In this document: positions 14,081-22,482 of the stretch, one piece after another
Layout: every line of letters begins with the position of its first letter
How positions within the stretch are numbered: the stretch's first letter is position 1
DNA from: Allobaculum fili
Lineage (GTDB): Bacteria; Bacillota_I; Bacilli_A; Erysipelotrichales; Erysipelotrichaceae
NCBI RefSeq assembly: GCF_020969955.1
Contig: NZ_JAHDSX010000027.1
Location: 1,399 to 33,398 of the forward strand
Reading direction: 5' to 3'
Length of the DNA: 32,000 bases
Notes under the pieces: model-generated
Database searches by the model: none
What the model was told of the DNA's origin: nothing
Seen by the model: only the letters and a program-made list of their open reading frames with translations
Program-made: the position numbers and the translations under genes

Positions 14081-14403
14081 CATGTCTTACAGAAACGGGG
14101 AAAGTACAGAAAATGTGTACGTATTGCTCCGTTTTAATACAGACAAATATGGTATACGACTAGATTTTTAAATAAAACAGAGGATTGAAAAAGTAACAGA
14201 AAATGAAACAAAACTGTAATTAAAAAATACAGGGAAAAACGACATTTTCATGTTGATTTTCCCCACTTTGGGAAAGTGGTTCCATATAGCTCCTACACTG
14301 AAAACAGAAAGGTGCAGGTTCGAGTCAGCTGGTCAGATCGGGCAGTCTGATCATTCGGGTCATTCTCGAACTTCGCACATTTGCTTTGCACGAAGGAGTA
14401 TGT

Positions 14404-16845
14404 ATGAAAACAAAGCAATCAATGAAGAAGCTGCTGTCGCTGGCTTTATGCCTGAGCGCGCCGGTTTCGATGATGATCTCCATGCCGCAGACCGTTCTGG
14501 CACAGGAAGCGACGACCGCGCCGCAGGAACTGCCAGATGTCTCGGATAAGAAAGAAAATGGAACCTGGGGAACAGTAAAATACTATCTTCTGGATGACGG
14601 AACCCTGTATTTTGGACCTGGTCAGACAGCCACCACCCCAAAGAAATTTTATCTGGCAAGCTCTGTTACACGCATCGTCTGCCATCCCGATTTTGATTCC
14701 AGTCCGCTGACTTCCATGTATGAGATGTTTTATAACTATACAAAACTTGAAGACATTTCCGGACTGGCAGAATGGGATATCAGTAATGTAACTACCATGT
14801 ACGGTGCTTTTGCGAATACAAAAATTAAAAATACCGATGCGCTTTCCTCCTGGGAATCTTCTAAACTAGGGGGACTGAACAGTACGTTTTCCGGCTGTAC
14901 GGAACTCACCGATTTAAGCGGACTGGCTAATCTTGGAAAAAGCGGCTCCATTCGCGACATGAACGGCGCTTTCCTTGGCTGCACAAGTCTGGAATCTCTG
15001 CATGGACTGGAAGACTGGTTTTCCGCGGAAGAATCCAGTCTGGATTCCATGTCCTCAACGTTTGAAGGGTGCACGAAGCTGAGCGATGTATCTGCTCTGT
15101 CCGGATGGAACACCATGAACGCGACCAACCTCTGCCAGACGTTTAACAGCTGTCCGATTTCCGATCTTTCGGTCTTTTCCAACTGGAACGTTTCGAAAGT
15201 CAGCGGCTTTGCGGGAACGTTTACCGGAAATACTGCTCTTACATCCCTGAAGGGACTGGAAAACTGGAATACAGCCAGCGCCAGTTCCTATGCGCAGATG
15301 TTTGAAAACTGCACAAATCTGAAAGATGCGAATGCGATGAGCCACTGGAAAACCGAAAAATGGTTCAGTGCGGACAATATTCTAAACAATACTGCTGTCA
15401 CTCATCTGGATTTATCGGGCTGGAATACCGCACAGATGTTTTTCAGTGATACATCGAGTTATTTGTTCTCCAATCCGCTTACCGCAATCCGACTTTCTGC
15501 AGATTACCTGAGCATGATCCGCCCGAATAAGCAGGCGCTTGTCAAATCGAAAAACAGCGACGCCTACGGGGATTCCTGGGTCAGCCAGAACCTGCACGGA
15601 CCGTATACGTCCGCAGAACTGACTGATGGAACAGTTACATGGACCGAAGATATGGATGGCTGGTGGGGACGAGCCAAAACGGCGACTCTCGTCGACGAAG
15701 CGCATGGTTTGACCAAAACGATTTCTCTTCCCGCCGATCTGGAAGTCAGCCTTCCGCTTGGAACGGGCGCCTTTGACGGGAGCCCATTCCATGCCAGAGT
15801 CATCGGGTGGAAAAAAGCCAATAGTGAAGAAACCATCACGAAATATACAGCTGGACTGAGCGAAGAAAATATTGAACTCAACCCGGTATGGGAATTCGAG
15901 CTGCATGCGAACACCTGGACGTTTGATGCCAACGGCGGTACTGGAACGATGGATTCCATTGAGGTGAGCGTACCTTCGGATACGTCCGCTCGCGTTCCAG
16001 ACTGCTCGTTTACCCGCGAAGGCTACACGTTTACCGGCTGGAATACAAAAGCCGACGGCAGCGGTGATAATATCGCGGTTGGCGATACGATTGACGTGGA
16101 TTACTCCATTGACCAGTTCACCGTATACGCACAATGGAAGAAAATTCCTTCGCATCAGGTTGCCTTTGAAGCCAATGGCGGCACAGGCGATATGGAGACG
16201 CTGATCTGGAATGGTGAAGAAGATCACGCTTTGCCAAAAAATGGCTTTACCCGAACGGATTATGAATTCACGGGCTGGAATACGAAAGCTGACGGTACGG
16301 GTATTACCTACGCGGATGAAGCGCAGCTGAGCGGCGGTGAAGAAGACTCTGAACTTACGTTATATGCTCAATGGAAAAAGATACCGTCTCATATGGTAAC
16401 CTTCGCTGCAAATGGCGGAACCGGCACTATGGAACCTCTGCTCTGGAAAGGAGAAGAGGGAAATAAACTGCCCAAAAATACCTTTACCCGATTCGACTGG
16501 ATCTTTACCGGCTGGAATACAAAGGCCGATGGTACTGGTACCGCTTATGCCGATGAAGCCCAGCTGACCGGCGGCGAAGACGATACGGAAATCACGCTGT
16601 ATGCCCAATGGAAGGCTGTCCTGCATTACGATCTTCTCGATCAGGCGATTGAAAAAGGCGAGTCAATCGCTTCGAAATCGTTCAAATCAAATCAGAACGA
16701 GACACTCAATGCGGCGATTGCAGAAGCAAAAACGGTTCGAACACAAAGTGAATCGCAGATCGAGATCGACCAAGCCGCCAGAACGCTCAATCAGGTACTT
16801 CTGTCTCTTCGCCTGACCACGGATACAGCACTGCCGAGTCTATAG
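14404..16845 (+). CDS. Secreted surface protein: signal peptide, DUF285/BspA-type leucine-rich repeats, 3 Listeria-Bacteroides (Flg_new) repeats, FIVAR-like C-terminus
   Basis: ATG 14404 follows AAGGAG (14393-98). Signal peptide MKTKQSMKKLLSLALCLSAPVSMMISMPQTVLAQE. Repeats of ~26 aa such as 'WDISNVTTMYGAFANT' and 'WNVSKVSGFAGTF'. Three copies of '..ANGGTG.M......F.R..Y.FTGWNTKADGTG....YAQWK'. No LPXTG motif was seen. Confidence 0.85.
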   Translation: MKTKQSMKKLLSLALCLSAPVSMMISMPQTVLAQEATTAPQELPDVSDKKENGTWGTVKYYLLDDGTLYFGPGQTATTPKKFYLASSVTRIVCHPDFDSSPLTSMYEMFYNYTKLEDISGLAEWDISNVTTMYGAFANTKIKNTDALSSWESSKLGGLNSTFSGCTELTDLSGLANLGKSGSIRDMNGAFLGCTSLESLHGLEDWFSAEESSLDSMSSTFEGCTKLSDVSALSGWNTMNATNLCQTFNSCPISDLSVFSNWNVSKVSGFAGTFTGNTALTSLKGLENWNTASASSYAQMFENCTNLKDANAMSHWKTEKWFSADNILNNTAVTHLDLSGWNTAQMFFSDTSSYLFSNPLTAIRLSADYLSMIRPNKQALVKSKNSDAYGDSWVSQNLHGPYTSAELTDGTVTWTEDMDGWWGRAKTATLVDEAHGLTKTISLPADLEVSLPLGTGAFDGSPFHARVIGWKKANSEETITKYTAGLSEENIELNPVWEFELHANTWTFDANGGTGTMDSIEVSVPSDTSARVPDCSFTREGYTFTGWNTKADGSGDNIAVGDTIDVDYSIDQFTVYAQWKKIPSHQVAFEANGGTGDMETLIWNGEEDHALPKNGFTRTDYEFTGWNTKADGTGITYADEAQLSGGEEDSELTLYAQWKKIPSHMVTFAANGGTGTMEPLLWKGEEGNKLPKNTFTRFDWIFTGWNTKADGTGTAYADEAQLTGGEDDTEITLYAQWKAVLHYDLLDQAIEKGESIASKSFKSNQNETLNAAIAEAKTVRTQSESQIEIDQAARTLNQVLLSLRLTTDTALPSL
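15910..16617 (+). repeat. Three tandem ~240-nt coding repeats (Listeria-Bacteroides repeat domains)
   Basis: Repeat boundaries are marked by YAQWKKIPSH (x2) and YAQWKA. Repeats 2 and 3 are highly similar at the protein level. Confidence 0.8.
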
Positions 16846-16936: not shown

Positions 16937-16981
16937 GTCCGCTAGTGTCGGAAAACCAGATTTGGCTCCGACCTGGCGGAC
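16937..16981. terminator. Strong bidirectional hairpin between the surface-protein gene and the TIR gene
   Basis: 9-bp stem gtccgctag/ctggcggac plus 6-bp stem gtcgga/tccgac. The minus strand continues TTTTCATTTT and the plus strand TGTTTGTTTG. Confidence 0.7.
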
Positions 16982-17084
16982 TGTTTGTTTGTACGAGGAT
17001 TGAGCAGGGAAAGAAAAAACAGGCTGCGATCATTCCTTTCTCAGGAAGAAACTGCTGTTTAGCAAAAGAACCGCGTTACCTGTT

Positions 17085-18146
17085 TTACTCAAACGAGGAG
17101 GCTATGTCCTCGGATTGTTCACGTTCTTTCAAAAAGTCTGCCAGAGGGGTGCACAGGTGATTCCACATATAATTGAACTCAGTGCGATATGCCTGGTACA
17201 TTTCCCAGTCTTTTTTTGCTCCATCGAAAGTAAATGATTCCTGATTATCACTTGAACCATCACCATAGCGGTAGTTTTTTAAAGAAAGCGAACCCGTTCC
17301 GTCTTTTCGATGGACGAGGTAGGTTCGATGTAAAATCGGCAGCGAACATACGCGTACCTCTAGCAGTTCTGGGTAATTGGCGCTTCGTTCTCTCCAGATA
17401 TTGAAGTTGTTTTCTAAAGGGATGTACCACTTCATTTGTTTACGCATATGCTGAACGATCTCTTCCGAGGTGTATTCAGACTGAATGATGACTCGTACCG
17501 GTATGTGATGCTCCATTAGCTTCTGCAGAATGTCGATCTTTTCATTATTTAGATACCAGTAAGAACCGACATGAAAGGCCATATCTACACCGCTGACGTT
17601 TTGAGAGGAATCCAGAGAATACTTAAAAAAATCAGCAACATTTTGGCCAATGTTTAATCCTAGAGAAATTGTTCCAGGAGCTAGAAGGAGAAAGCTTACC
17701 AGACGATCAACAGAGGCTTCGAAATATTCTGTTGAAAGGATAACTGAATTTAGCTGTTCAAGAATTTGCAGAGAAGGAGGTAATAGCGAGGACAGCTGAC
17801 TGGACCAGACAAAACCGTGCAGCTGAACGGGTATAATAGTCTTCTTCAATTCCATAGCGGCTTCAATTTCCTGTCGGACCCAGTCTTCTTCATGAACGCA
17901 GCGATCGAGAGCGGCAGGGGAAAGAATCAGAATAAAATTTTCACAGTTCGCAATAGCATTCTTGATTCGATTGTTTATGTTTCCTGCTTTGGACTCTTCC
18001 AGATCGAGAAAACAGGAAATTCCCAGAGATTCGAGCTGATCGCGAATCATTTTGGCCGCAAAAAAACCGTCAGCGCGGCGATAGCTGATAAAACAGTCCA
18101 CAGGACTGGATCCGTCATGCAGCGGATCGGGCTGGAAATGGTTCAT
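17085..18146 (-). CDS. TIR-domain protein with uncharacterised ~200-aa C-terminal domain (candidate defence/NADase protein)
   Basis: Track ORF 17085..18158. GTG 18158 overlaps the SD GGAGG (18158-62), so ATG 18146 is preferred. TIR motifs: DCFISYRRADG, SCFLD, NFILILSP, EDWVRQEIEAA (W89-x3-E93), IIPVQL. The C-terminal half has no TM helix and no domain I can name with confidence. Confidence 0.85.
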   Translation of the reverse strand: MNHFQPDPLHDGSSPVDCFISYRRADGFFAAKMIRDQLESLGISCFLDLEESKAGNINNRIKNAIANCENFILILSPAALDRCVHEEDWVRQEIEAAMELKKTIIPVQLHGFVWSSQLSSLLPPSLQILEQLNSVILSTEYFEASVDRLVSFLLLAPGTISLGLNIGQNVADFFKYSLDSSQNVSGVDMAFHVGSYWYLNNEKIDILQKLMEHHIPVRVIIQSEYTSEEIVQHMRKQMKWYIPLENNFNIWRERSANYPELLEVRVCSLPILHRTYLVHRKDGTGSLSLKNYRYGDGSSDNQESFTFDGAKKDWEMYQAYRTEFNYMWNHLCTPLADFLKEREQSEDIASSFE

Positions 18147-18370
18147 AAGGATCTGCACCTCCGTTTCTTTTTCTCGGGTCCAGAAAGAAGCTTCTAAATC
18201 AGGGAATGATGTCTTCTTCCTTGGGATTGATAACTGTTTTCAATGCTCGTTGTATTGGAATGTTTCTGTTCATTCAGAATAGGCAAAGAAGGACAGACGT
18301 GCAATATCTGTTGGATTTCTTCGCATTTTCGATTGCGTTTTCCACAGATCTGTATCATTTTTCACATACA

Positions 18371-18434
18371 AAAATCGGCCGGTTTTCTGCAGCCGTTTCC
18401 GAAGGGAAACAGACTGCAGAAGACCGGCCGTTTT
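18371..18434 (-). terminator. Terminator of hisS-aspS operon
   Basis: ~17-bp stem tcggccggttttctgcag / ctgcagaagaccggccg with inner hairpin gtttcc-gaag-ggaaac. The minus strand is followed by TTTTT. Confidence 0.8.
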
Positions 18435-18485
18435 GAGCTGATCGTTAATCCAGAGGATTTCTTGAAAAATTATCGTGAATCGGGA

Positions 18486-20342
<1,857 letters not shown>

Positions 20343-20525: not shown

Positions 20526-21878
20526 TTAGTCCTGATGATCGTGCGCTTCGTGCTCGTCATGGTCATGATCGTGCTCATGATGATGATCGTGACCGTGCTC
20601 ATCGCCTTCTTCGAACTGACTGTCCATGAAGTCGATCAGCTCATCCGCATTCAGACTGGTCTGTTCGCGGGTCTGCGCGTTCTTAATCGTAACAGTGCGG
20701 TTTTTCGCTTCGTCTTCGCCGATCAGCAGCGTGAATTTGGCATGGGCGCGGTCTGCAGCCTTAAACTGCCCTTTGAACGATTTGCCCATGAAGTCCATGT
20801 CAGAACGGAATCCGTTGGCGCGCAGTTCGGTCAGAAGTTCAAACGCATAGCTGCGGGCTTCCGGATTGAGAACCATGACGTACGCATCCAGAGGCGGCTT
20901 TTCGCCAAGTTTAATGCCTTCCGCTTCCAGCGCGAGCAGAATGCGCTCTTCGCCAAGCGCCCAGCCGATGCCGGACATTTCCGGTCCGCCAAAATAGGGG
21001 ATCAGGTTGTCGTAGCGGCCGCCGGCAAGAAGCGTAGCCTGGGCACCCATGGAAGGCGATTCGCTGACAATTTCAAAAACAGTATGCGTGTAGTAGTCGA
21101 GACCGCGAACCAGAGAAGGATCGACACGATACGGAATGTTCATTACATCGAGCAGATCAGTAACCGTCCTGAAGTATTCGCGGCTTTCCTCGTTGAGGTA
21201 GTCAGCCATGGACGGCGCGTTTTTCATGCAGTCCTTGTCGTGATCGACTTTGCAGTCGAGAAGACGGAGCGGATTCTGTTCATAGCGGCGCTTGCAGTCG
21301 GAACAGAGATCATCGACATATGGTGCGAAGTATTCTTTTAAAGCGCTTCGATACGCCGAGCGGGATTCGTCATCGCCAAGGGTATTCAGCAGAATGGTAA
21401 TATGGTCAAGGCCAAGGGAACGCAGAATGGAGTAGGCGAGAACCATCGCTTCTACGTCCGAATACGGGCTCTTCAGACCAAGAGATTCGATACCGAACTG
21501 GTTGAAAATACGCAGACGGCCTTTTTGCGGACGTTCATGACGGTGCATCGGGCCGATATAATACAGCTTTACCGGAAGATCCGGCAGAGCGTACATTTTG
21601 TTTTCTACAAAGGAACGGACGACTCCTGCGGTTCCTTCCGGACGCAGAGTCAGGGACGTCGAAGAATTGGGAAGAGTAAAGGTGTACATCTCTTTGTTGA
21701 CCATGTCGCTCGAATCGTTTTCGCGCTTGAAGACATTGGTGTGTTCAAAGATCGGGGTACGAATTTCATCAAAGTTGTAAAGAAGACAGAACTGACGGAA
21801 TAAAGTTTCGAGCTGCTGCCAGGAGTAGCTTGCTTCTCCGTAAATATCCTGCGTTCCTCTCGGAATTTGGTAACTCAT
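20526..21878 (-). CDS. hisS: Histidine--tRNA ligase with His/Asp-rich C-terminal tail
   Basis: 450 aa. Contains PRGTQD, LRPEGTA, FRHERPQKGR.R.F.Q and GGRYD motifs. The tail reads EEGDEHGHDHHHEHDHDHDEHEAHDHQD. Confidence 0.95.
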   Translation of the reverse strand: MSYQIPRGTQDIYGEASYSWQQLETLFRQFCLLYNFDEIRTPIFEHTNVFKRENDSSDMVNKEMYTFTLPNSSTSLTLRPEGTAGVVRSFVENKMYALPDLPVKLYYIGPMHRHERPQKGRLRIFNQFGIESLGLKSPYSDVEAMVLAYSILRSLGLDHITILLNTLGDDESRSAYRSALKEYFAPYVDDLCSDCKRRYEQNPLRLLDCKVDHDKDCMKNAPSMADYLNEESREYFRTVTDLLDVMNIPYRVDPSLVRGLDYYTHTVFEIVSESPSMGAQATLLAGGRYDNLIPYFGGPEMSGIGWALGEERILLALEAEGIKLGEKPPLDAYVMVLNPEARSYAFELLTELRANGFRSDMDFMGKSFKGQFKAADRAHAKFTLLIGEDEAKNRTVTIKNAQTREQTSLNADELIDFMDSQFEEGDEHGHDHHHEHDHDHDEHEAHDHQD

Positions 21879-22290
21879 GTTTTCCTCCAGTTGACGGGCA
21901 GTTCAGCAGGGGCTGAACCGTACACTAAATCTTACTATATTTATTACGGTCATATAGCCTGAATTGAACAGACTCTGAAAAGGTTTTGCATTTTGTTCAT
22001 CAAAACGGAAGGCCGTTTCCTTTCCGTCCGAAGATACTTCAAAAAAGCGGCAAGGGAAACGGGGCGAGCCCGGCCTTCCAAAAACTCCTGTTCAGAAAGG
22101 GCCTGTCCGCCTGCGGAATACCGAATTGAGGGAATGAAAAGCGAATTTCTTACCGTTCTTGCGTATTCTAAATACAGTTCTGTATTTTGGCGGTTCCAGC
22201 TGACAAACAGTCTGCTTTTAAAAACTGACGGAAGGCGGAACGAGCGCACCGTCCTGGACATCGTCAGTCTGTACACCGACAGATTGACAA
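21879..22290 (-). promoter_or_regulatory. Long structured 5' leader of hisS-aspS; candidate attenuator (T-box-like, canonical T-box motif not confirmed)
   Basis: On the minus strand there is a GC-rich element ending in T6 (22041-22046). A hairpin ACGGAAAGG..CCTTCCGT (22005-22027) is followed by UUUG. The 8-nt element GGAAGGCC (complement of 22072-79) can pair instead with GGCCUUCC of that hairpin. A GUUCAGC/GCUGAAC hairpin sits just before the RBS. hisS-aspS is T-box regulated in B. subtilis. Confidence 0.3.
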
Positions 22291-22482
22291 TTCAGAAAAC
22301 GGCATAACCGTCTGCGCGCCTGTATACGAAAGAGTCAGCAGGCAGGAATCAGCAGACAATAGATAAGAATAGAAACATTATGAGCGGCCGGGTTCCGGCT
22401 TTTCATCGAAAAGCAAAAGATAAAAATCCAGAGCACAAGGATGCTGAGCGCCAGAATAACCGGCCTGAAAAGAGGGGATAGG

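Follow-up and report, generated by a model that had tools for sequence, protein, structure and literature searches.

A SARM1-like TIR protein with a phospholipase D-like tail as a candidate single-gene immune system in Allobaculum fili

The locus

A stretch of 32,000 nucleotides from Allobaculum fili (contig NZ_JAHDSX010000027.1), analysed here in full and referred to as the window, carries on its minus strand a complete open reading frame (ORF; 17085..18146, 353 amino acids plus stop) whose product combines an N-terminal TIR domain with a C-terminal domain resembling the phospholipase D (PLD) superfamily. The protein is 100% identical to the A. fili "TIR domain-containing protein" WP_230267872.1, and AspS likewise points to this species of the Erysipelotrichaceae. 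A first-pass annotation, made from the sequence alone, had described it as a stand-alone TIR protein and a candidate for a new single-gene immune system. The gene starts at ATG 18146, although the ORF listing reaches further, to a GTG at 18158, and a Shine-Dalgarno sequence, GGAGG, lies 11 nucleotides upstream of the ATG (18158..18162, minus strand); both the start and the ribosome-binding site were present as first annotated.

Upstream, the TIR gene is shielded from the hisS-aspS operon by a strong intrinsic terminator of aspS (18371..18434, minus strand; -44.2 kcal/mol, z = -9.4, with AUUUUUG after it). Of the two hairpins previously placed downstream, the one between the convergent TIR and DUF285 genes (16937..16981, not assigned to a strand; -28.8 kcal/mol, z = -5.3, with a U-rich tail) is real and likely a terminator, whereas the weak hairpin with its T6 run (17018..17059, minus strand; -13.6 kcal/mol) was no better than shuffled sequence (z = 0.0) and is only possibly one. 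The genes around it encode AspS, HisS, ABC exporters, PlsY, TGT, Vut_1, HtpG, DAHP synthase and a DUF285/Flg_new surface protein. As the earlier description of aspS/hisS and surface-protein neighbours had implied, no defence-type partner gene was found in the 32-kb window, that is, within about 14 kb of the TIR gene. These observations support a monocistronic gene that is partner-less in the window. A repeat search around the gene showed neither flanking direct repeats nor an insertion scar, and an Rfam scan of the whole window gave no RNA family.

A SARM1-like TIR domain joined to a PLD-like domain without the HKD motif

Residues of about 17 to 153 (17688..18098, minus strand) were identified by Pfam TIR_2, Foldseek and phmmer as a SARM1-like TIR domain, a predicted NAD+-cleaving enzyme (NADase). 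The TIR_2 model matched residues 19 to 149 (E = 7.2e-17; 62.4 bits against a cut-off of 28), in agreement with the span of about 17 to 150 first proposed for a TIR_2-type domain, and Pfam ThsB_TIR (26.8 against 21.2 bits) and Pfam TIR likewise scored above their cut-offs. All four TIR motifs quoted at that stage were found in the protein. We built a full-length AlphaFold model from an alignment of 17 relatives, with a predicted local distance difference test (pLDDT) score of 76. The TIR part of this model matched human SARM1 TIR structures in Foldseek with template modelling (TM) scores of 0.85 to 0.89 and 34 to 36% identity. By sequence, SARM1 was again the best match in the PDB (phmmer, E = 1.5e-25, 35% identity over an alignment spanning the whole TIR domain), and SARM1 and Caenorhabditis elegans TIR-1 were the only PDB chains that passed E = 1e-5.

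The motif D88-W89-V-R-Q-E93-I of the window protein lined up with DWVHKEI of SARM1, whose glutamate we take to be the catalytic residue E642. The earlier assignment of W89-x3-E93 to the catalytic position thus agrees with the SARM1 alignment; the predicted catalytic glutamate is encoded by the GAA codon at 17868..17870 (minus strand), and all 17 of the full-length relatives examined share D88, W89 and E93. Across the same relatives, the BB-loop G55 and the FISYRR strand vary little or not at all, and the position of SARM1 H685 is occupied by threonine. SARM1 and TIR-1 share the FISYRR strand, the BB-loop glycine and the DWVxxEI motif with the window protein. Because a SARM1-type fold is combined with these conserved residues, the domain has what an active NADase requires, and from its sequence it is probably a genuine NADase-type TIR that is catalytically competent. 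SARM1 is an effector NADase that is switched on by oligomerisation, and its ARM and SAM domains provide autoinhibition and octamerisation; in their place the window protein has the PLD-like tail.

SARM1-like TIR heads that are 45 to 52% identical to this one also occur on quite different tails in Christensenellales, Bacteroidales and Pseudomonas. At loci L028, L033, L037, L039 and L050 (10001-11340), a head that is 45 to 50% identical precedes another tail of about 280 amino acids, and these proteins form a conserved 434-amino-acid family in Christensenellales and Oscillospiraceae. A Bacteroidales locus (L054, 9983-11770) has the same head within a transmembrane-containing protein of 595 amino acids.

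The C-terminal module had been left as one of unknown fold, and our analysis instead suggests a family of degenerate PLD-like domains. An AlphaFold2 model together with fold and profile matches delimited a probable divergent PLD-superfamily domain of about 165 amino acids without the HKD motif at residues of about 172 to 331 (17154..17633, minus strand). Modelled alone, this C-domain reached a pLDDT of 82.5 and a predicted TM score of 0.82. Foldseek against the PDB returned vaccinia F13 first (E = 1.6e-3, probability 1.0, query TM score 0.49), followed by phosphatidylserine synthases of the PLD superfamily (PssA); against BFVD, the first match was a Terrestrivirus protein with a PLD phosphodiesterase domain (probability 0.98, query TM score 0.55). 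F13 is itself a PLD-like protein with a degenerate HKD motif. The order of the conserved C-domain motifs (MAFHxGxxW in the first beta strand, RVLxN or more generally RVxxN, PLLH/R-x-Y, YxYGN and EFxYLW) fits the layout of PLDc_2. That Pfam model matched 3 of 128 full-length C-domain relatives and was the sole Pfam family to recur among domain-only sequences (5 of 46). Profiles built from 16 and from 46 C-domain sequences found nothing significant among PDB sequences; the top match of the 46-sequence profile, mitochondrial cardiolipin hydrolase (PLD6), had a nonsignificant E value of 0.81 and was confined to the C-terminal helix (EFeyLW versus EEFERIW).

None of 150 C-domain copies had H-x-K/R at the presumed HKD position. 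Profile column 111, which we equate with the HKD histidine by motif correspondence, contained histidine in 83 copies and arginine in 58 (one or the other in 141 of 150), and column 113, corresponding to the HKD lysine, was always hydrophobic or small (Y, T, I, M, V or L). Because HxK is missing from every copy, we rejected the idea that the C-domain acts as a canonical PLD nuclease. Other positions were strongly conserved: in profile numbering, W89 and Y130 were present in all 150 copies, and G32, N60, Y132, E158 and W163 were each present in at least 89%. The C-domain resembles single-domain PLD members (Nuc, Zucchini/PLD6 and BfiI) and poxvirus F13 in its predicted beta-alpha-beta core and C-terminal F..W helix and, like PLD enzymes, occurs in single or tandem copies. 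It differs from them in lacking HxK(x)4D and in having its conserved residues (H30, G32, W35, N60, W89, Y130, Y132 and E158 of the profile) elsewhere, and the similarity scores are marginal. Thus, several independent lines, each of them weak, suggest a divergent PLD-superfamily domain that would be incapable of HKD chemistry. The conserved basic and aromatic residues further suggest that a pocket for a phosphate-bearing ligand may have been retained.

Family, homologous loci and status of the gene in A. fili

We searched 1.84 billion cluster representatives with the C-domain profile and obtained 251 proteins (clusters) at E <= 1e-3, of which 100 had E <= 1e-30. The domain was present once in 135 proteins, twice in 13 and five times in 1; it is a tandem duplicate in homologues P0002 to P0007, and P0024 (1072 amino acids) has five tandem HKD-less PLD-like copies without a recognisable TIR. 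Among 128 C-domain representatives, the most frequent annotated N-terminus was TIR_2 (31 proteins), followed by Trans_reg_C (6), DUF4145 (4), Sel1 (3), HTH_23 (2) and the TIR-like domains DUF4062 (1, P0138) and SEFIR (1), and the remaining proteins had unannotated N-terminal regions of about 120 to 250 amino acids. A constant tail with exchangeable NADase-type heads is, as far as sequence comparison goes, the pattern expected of a sensing or assembly module. A tblastn search with the C-domain gave no match in sequenced plasmid and phage collections. The one locus found in a scan of IMG/VR bears TraG and looks more like a conjugative element than a phage, and the contig of P0039, a C-domain protein without a TIR, is only 1.2 kb long. 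A literature search for "TIR-PLD" did not find the term, and a paper on gut metagenomic selection (PMC12366544) makes no mention of TIR. The C-domain represents a previously undescribed family, absent as a named entry from the databases searched here.

Apart from the cluster of A. fili itself, a search of 5.8 billion proteins yielded only 15 clusters of full-length homologues, 35 to 41% identical to the window protein. These homologues were present in 6 of 185,579 GTDB species representatives, namely two Lachnospiraceae, a Butyricicoccus, a Ruminococcus, an Eubacteriales metagenome-assembled genome and an actinobacterium of the Eggerthellaceae. This patchy spread, taken from sequence searches, is of the type seen with horizontal transfer. 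We compared the neighbourhoods of 11 homologue loci. At four of them (L010, L014, L021 and L022), the homologue sits immediately behind parA-parB of DUF6017-type conjugative elements, its start codon overlapping the preceding stop codon, and further loci lie downstream of TraG coupling proteins within TIR-gene arrays (five TIR genes at L018, three at L085). A second TIR gene was found within about three genes at 8 of the 11 loci, with types including TIR-STING, TIR-NB-ARC-TPR and TIR-kinase. Most homologues occupy cargo slots of conjugative elements, which also hold kinase, STAND and STING genes. When 100 neighbour proteins from these loci were scanned with PADLOC at E <= 1e-5, 118 families were matched in all; the top TIR-type model, SAVED5--SAVED_TIR, matched 7 proteins and the top PD-T4-6 kinase models matched 6 each. 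Two further homologues (L020 and L024) are solitary, with ordinary genes of the chromosome around them, like the window gene. No partner gene was conserved across the 11 loci. The homologues, first proposed for collection, showed a patchy spread and mobile-element and defence-rich contexts.

Several of these loci had further features of their own. A TIR-STING gene (CAP12-PCTIR_TIR plus prok_STING) lies directly downstream of the two-repeat homologue at L010 (11633-12730; also at L011 to L013), and no CD-NTase was called within 8 kb of it on that conjugative element. Cargo arrays of three to five distinct TIR genes, including TIR-kinase-FHA and TIR-LRR-CutA1 fusions and Card1_endonuc giants, were seen at L018 (8963-20519), L085 (3621-8522) and L016 (207-19396). 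The element that carries homologue P0012 at L014 also encodes a metallo-beta-lactamase-fold protein matching Pfam Anti-Pycsar_Apyc1 (17649-18761), which suggests that this element carries anti-defence cargo as well.

In A. fili, the gene order aspS-TIR-DUF285 was the same in every contig examined, and the GC content of the TIR gene (42 to 44%) is lower than that of aspS/hisS (52 to 56%). One genome of a sister species was examined (AspS 88% identical); there, two small genes separate aspS from tgt, and the interval contains neither the TIR gene nor the DUF285 gene. Other A. fili strains (L003 and L075) have the DUF285/Flg_new gene (14386-16845 of the window, plus strand) split across two or three ORFs. 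Since it is split in some strains and absent together with the TIR gene in the sister species, the whole aspS-tgt interval is variable. The TIR gene itself was probably acquired horizontally in A. fili.

Disrupted alleles of the TIR gene were found in other lineages of the species. One carries an insertion sequence (IS) of the IS21 family at a point corresponding to 17410..17414 (no strand assigned; residue about 245), where the window copy is uninterrupted. In L077 to L080, homology to the window stops at about 17412, and the sequence beyond encodes an IstB-like C-terminus (L077, 7930-8248). The junction, in a widely sampled lineage labelled "uncultured Allobaculum sp.", shows repeated terminal motifs, and contigs consistently end there; the interrupted allele, with a product of 257 amino acids, was present on at least 16 contigs. 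In Allobaculum sp. Allo2, a cultured isolate with a complete genome, several frameshifts leave pieces of 176 and 150 amino acids (P0295/P0297), and another A. fili lineage has a split into 207 and 143 amino acids (P0303/P0305). Intact 353-amino-acid alleles were carried by about 110 of about 135 sampled A. fili contigs. These findings make the TIR gene accessory and dispensable. Carrying it may come at a cost, as its repeated loss suggests; such loss is typical of abortive-infection genes, but it is also compatible with the decay of a relic.

Among the other genes of the window, HisS (20526-21878, minus strand) has a C-terminal tail rich in His and Asp, HGHDHHHEHDHDHDEHEAHDHQD. Upstream of the hisS-aspS operon (21879-22440), no T-box or other Rfam family was found at gathering thresholds.

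A candidate single-protein defence and its alternatives

The first-pass annotation had taken known prokaryotic TIR systems to need partners, a premise that is outdated, since SpbK, Escherichia coli TIR-V/VI/IX and Swarozyc are single polypeptides. SpbK, an abortive-infection system from ICEBs1 of Bacillus subtilis, joins a TIR NADase to a small non-enzymatic sensing domain in one polypeptide without a partner gene, and its activation follows when the sensing domain clusters the TIR domains on the phage portal (PMC11984713, PMC12847820). E. coli TIR-V/VI/IX are demonstrated single-polypeptide NADase defences (Wang et al. 2024, PMC11350192), and Swarozyc is a one-protein defence in which DUF4062 is a TIR-like NADase and the C-terminal auxiliary domain is essential (bioRxiv 10.64898/2026.05.01.722283). 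All of these undergo cue-driven clustering as single polypeptides (PMC12847820, PMC11350192, bioRxiv 10.64898/2026.05.01.722283). In SARM1, SpbK, TIR-STING and others, the active site lies between two head-to-tail TIR domains, and accessory domains activate the enzyme by raising the local TIR concentration (PMC12847820).

The window protein resembles SpbK in being a single polypeptide of a family carried on conjugative elements and free of partners, which is a shared logic and not membership. The order of domains is reversed (in SpbK the sensor is N-terminal and the TIR C-terminal), the sensor folds are unrelated, and SpbK was neither in the top 50 fold matches of the window TIR nor among its PDB sequence matches at E = 1e-5. 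With E. coli TIR-V/VI/IX and Swarozyc it shares the arrangement of a NADase head (TIR or TIR-like) and an auxiliary region, which in those systems recognises phage proteins, in one gene. The domain order is that of Swarozyc, NADase first and auxiliary region last, but the Swarozyc head is DUF4062 whereas that of the window protein is TIR_2, with no DUF4062 match in Pfam. The Swarozyc auxiliary domain is probably a different domain, because DUF4062 occurs on just 1 of 128 C-domain relatives.

Thoeris ThsB, the TIR-SAVED and TIR-STING proteins of CBASS, the TIR-APAZ of SPARTA and TIR-STAND (Avs-like) proteins have in common with the window protein a TIR domain and an NAD+-based defence logic; their defining second domains or partners are lacking here. 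No ThsA-type gene (SIR2/SLOG, Macro-TM or caspase-like) was found in the window or beside homologues, and NCBIfam Thoeris ThcB4 scored 29 bits against a cut-off of 220. There was no CD-NTase in the window, and the PADLOC SAVED_TIR match spanned positions 10 to 94 of a 404-position profile, the TIR part only. No prokaryotic Argonaute was encoded in the window, and the TIR-APAZ of SPARTA aligned over the TIR part alone, as judged by TM scores of 0.26 to 0.32 and a root-mean-square deviation above 20 Å. The window protein had no NTPase domain, P-loop or NB-ARC match in Pfam, NCBIfam or PADLOC, which bears out the earlier remark that it has no P-loop. Membership in Thoeris, CBASS, SPARTA, retron-TIR or STAND systems was rejected because the PADLOC, NCBIfam and Pfam matches cover the TIR part alone. 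These profile searches, which had been suggested at the outset, confirmed the TIR domain and named no system for the whole protein; neither PADLOC nor NCBIfam holds a model for the full TIR–PLD-like architecture, and the TIR-part matches were far below equivalog cut-offs. AlphaFold and Foldseek, applied as also suggested to both halves, gave the SARM1-like TIR and the PLD-like C-domain. The idea of a new single-gene TIR immune system therefore stands in that no named family matches the full length, and falls short in that single-protein TIR defences are already known.

We assign a probability of roughly 0.55 to the reading that the protein is a self-contained, horizontally acquired anti-phage or anti-plasmid protein of the abortive-infection (suicide) type. 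In its favour are the TIR fold and motifs, the HKD-less PLD-like fold, the swapping of N-terminal domains, the contexts of the homologues and the accessory status of the gene; the NADase activity, the trigger, dimerisation and the defence phenotype are what we infer. In the proposed mechanism, the N-terminal SARM1-like TIR would be the effector and the PLD-like tail probably a sensing and assembly module. Single-domain PLD proteins dimerise, and the tail would likewise keep the protein dimeric and inactive. A cue derived from an invader would then make the tail nucleate higher-order clustering of the TIR domains; this cue might be a nucleic acid or phosphate-bearing ligand docked in the old PLD site, or else a multimeric phage or plasmid protein. 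Head-to-tail clusters would form composite active sites in which E93 would be the catalytic residue, NAD+ would be split into nicotinamide and either ADP-ribose or its cyclic form, and growth of the infected cell would cease. A more specific and tentative version, which we regard as less likely than not, is that in gut bacteria the C-domains are catalytically dead PLD-fold sensors in which the old phosphodiester site, made up of the basic residue and the invariant Tyr, Trp and Glu, reads a conserved invader-associated nucleic acid or nucleotide and is coupled to interchangeable outputs (SARM1-type TIR, DUF4062/NIR, SEFIR and DNA-binding domains). If true, such a dead-PLD sensor family would give single-protein NADase immunity a new principle of sensing.

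Several points weigh against a self-contained suicide defence. The window gene is surrounded by housekeeping genes and not by a defence island. The promoter proposed for it, a TTGCAC/TATTCT pair, is present in the sequence and matches 7 of 12 consensus positions, but a scan of the region found no promoter-like site. The gene has been inactivated in at least three A. fili lineages and is therefore dispensable. Many C-domain relatives have DNA-binding N-termini, which would also fit a C-domain role other than sensing. The strict conservation of polar and aromatic C-domain residues (W, Y-x-Y, E, N and H) suggests a conserved ligand or even catalysis, unlike a variable sensor of phage proteins.

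Among the alternatives, the one that survives best, although we consider it unlikely, is that the protein is a weapon or maintenance factor of mobile elements, either an addiction or exclusion toxin of parAB operons or a TIR mimic or NADase directed against TIR defences of the host, and that the A. fili copy is a stranded remnant. The four independent loci with the homologue directly after parA-parB (L010, L014, L021 and L022) fit this explanation, as do the Apyc1-like anti-Pycsar gene on one parAB-type element and the A. fili copy itself, which lies outside any mobile-element context and shows decay in several lineages. However, the catalytic glutamate and the NAD-pocket motifs are invariant, and pure mimicry would need neither; the copies in the window, L020 and L024 are solitary in chromosomes and thus independent of an element; and about 110 of about 135 sampled A. 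fili contigs have an intact gene. Defence genes are, moreover, an established cargo of conjugative elements, as with SpbK on ICEBs1 (PMC11984713).

Somewhat more doubtful is a signal-making enzyme of the Thoeris ThsB type, sensing infection and producing a messenger of the cyclic ADP-ribose type for an effector encoded elsewhere, which would be a neighbour gene on the conjugative elements and would act in trans or have been lost in A. fili. Pfam ThsB_TIR scored above its cut-off and several PADLOC ThsB models matched weakly, 8 of 11 homologue loci have other TIR, STING or Card1-type genes nearby, and SpbK too makes a cyclic product, N1-cyclic ADP-ribose (PMC12847820). Against these points stand the lack of a neighbour conserved across loci, the lack of a ThsA-type gene (SIR2, Macro, SLOG or caspase-like) in the window or adjoining the homologues, the low NCBIfam Thoeris score and the fact that the closest TIR relative is SARM1, an effector NADase.

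We consider it improbable, more so than either of these, that the A. fili gene is a functionless relic of an old transfer whose open frame reflects slow decay and not selection. Three independent disruptions in one species, the low GC content and the lack of a convincing promoter agree with a relic. The window copy is nevertheless unbroken and matches the RefSeq A. fili protein exactly, full-length variants of 353 amino acids are present on most of the contigs sampled, all family-invariant residues are kept, and a good Shine-Dalgarno sequence and flanking terminators are in place. A host-directed TIR effector of a mucosa-associated gut bacterium (compare TcpB, TcpC and TirS), delivered into host cells and depleting host NAD+ or blocking Toll-like receptor signalling, would suit a TIR unusually close to animal SARM1 in a gut commensal, but it is very improbable given that the protein has no signal peptide or secretion-system context, that its homologues lie on conjugative elements among phage-defence-type genes and that some members of the C-domain family are instead joined to DNA-binding domains of bacterial type.

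The favoured reading, a suicide-type defence in one protein, would make the window protein work by analogy like known single-polypeptide NADase defences while being a member of none, from which it differs variously in domain order, sensor fold and sequence. Current concepts are not overturned, since TIR defences encoded by one gene are well established. Should the protein be a working defence, the growing class of NADase immune systems made of one protein would gain an HKD-less PLD-like sensor module. Such a system would then be placed in Allobaculum, a gut commensal that is abundant yet little studied, and on conjugative elements in gut Firmicutes. That the TIR gene has broken repeatedly within one species would offer a natural experiment on what suicide-type immunity costs. 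The most valuable leads are the undescribed HKD-less PLD-like family and how close the TIR domain is to SARM1: because the TIR is 35% identical to that of human SARM1, the family could serve as a simple bacterial model for the restraint and activation of SARM1-type TIR domains.

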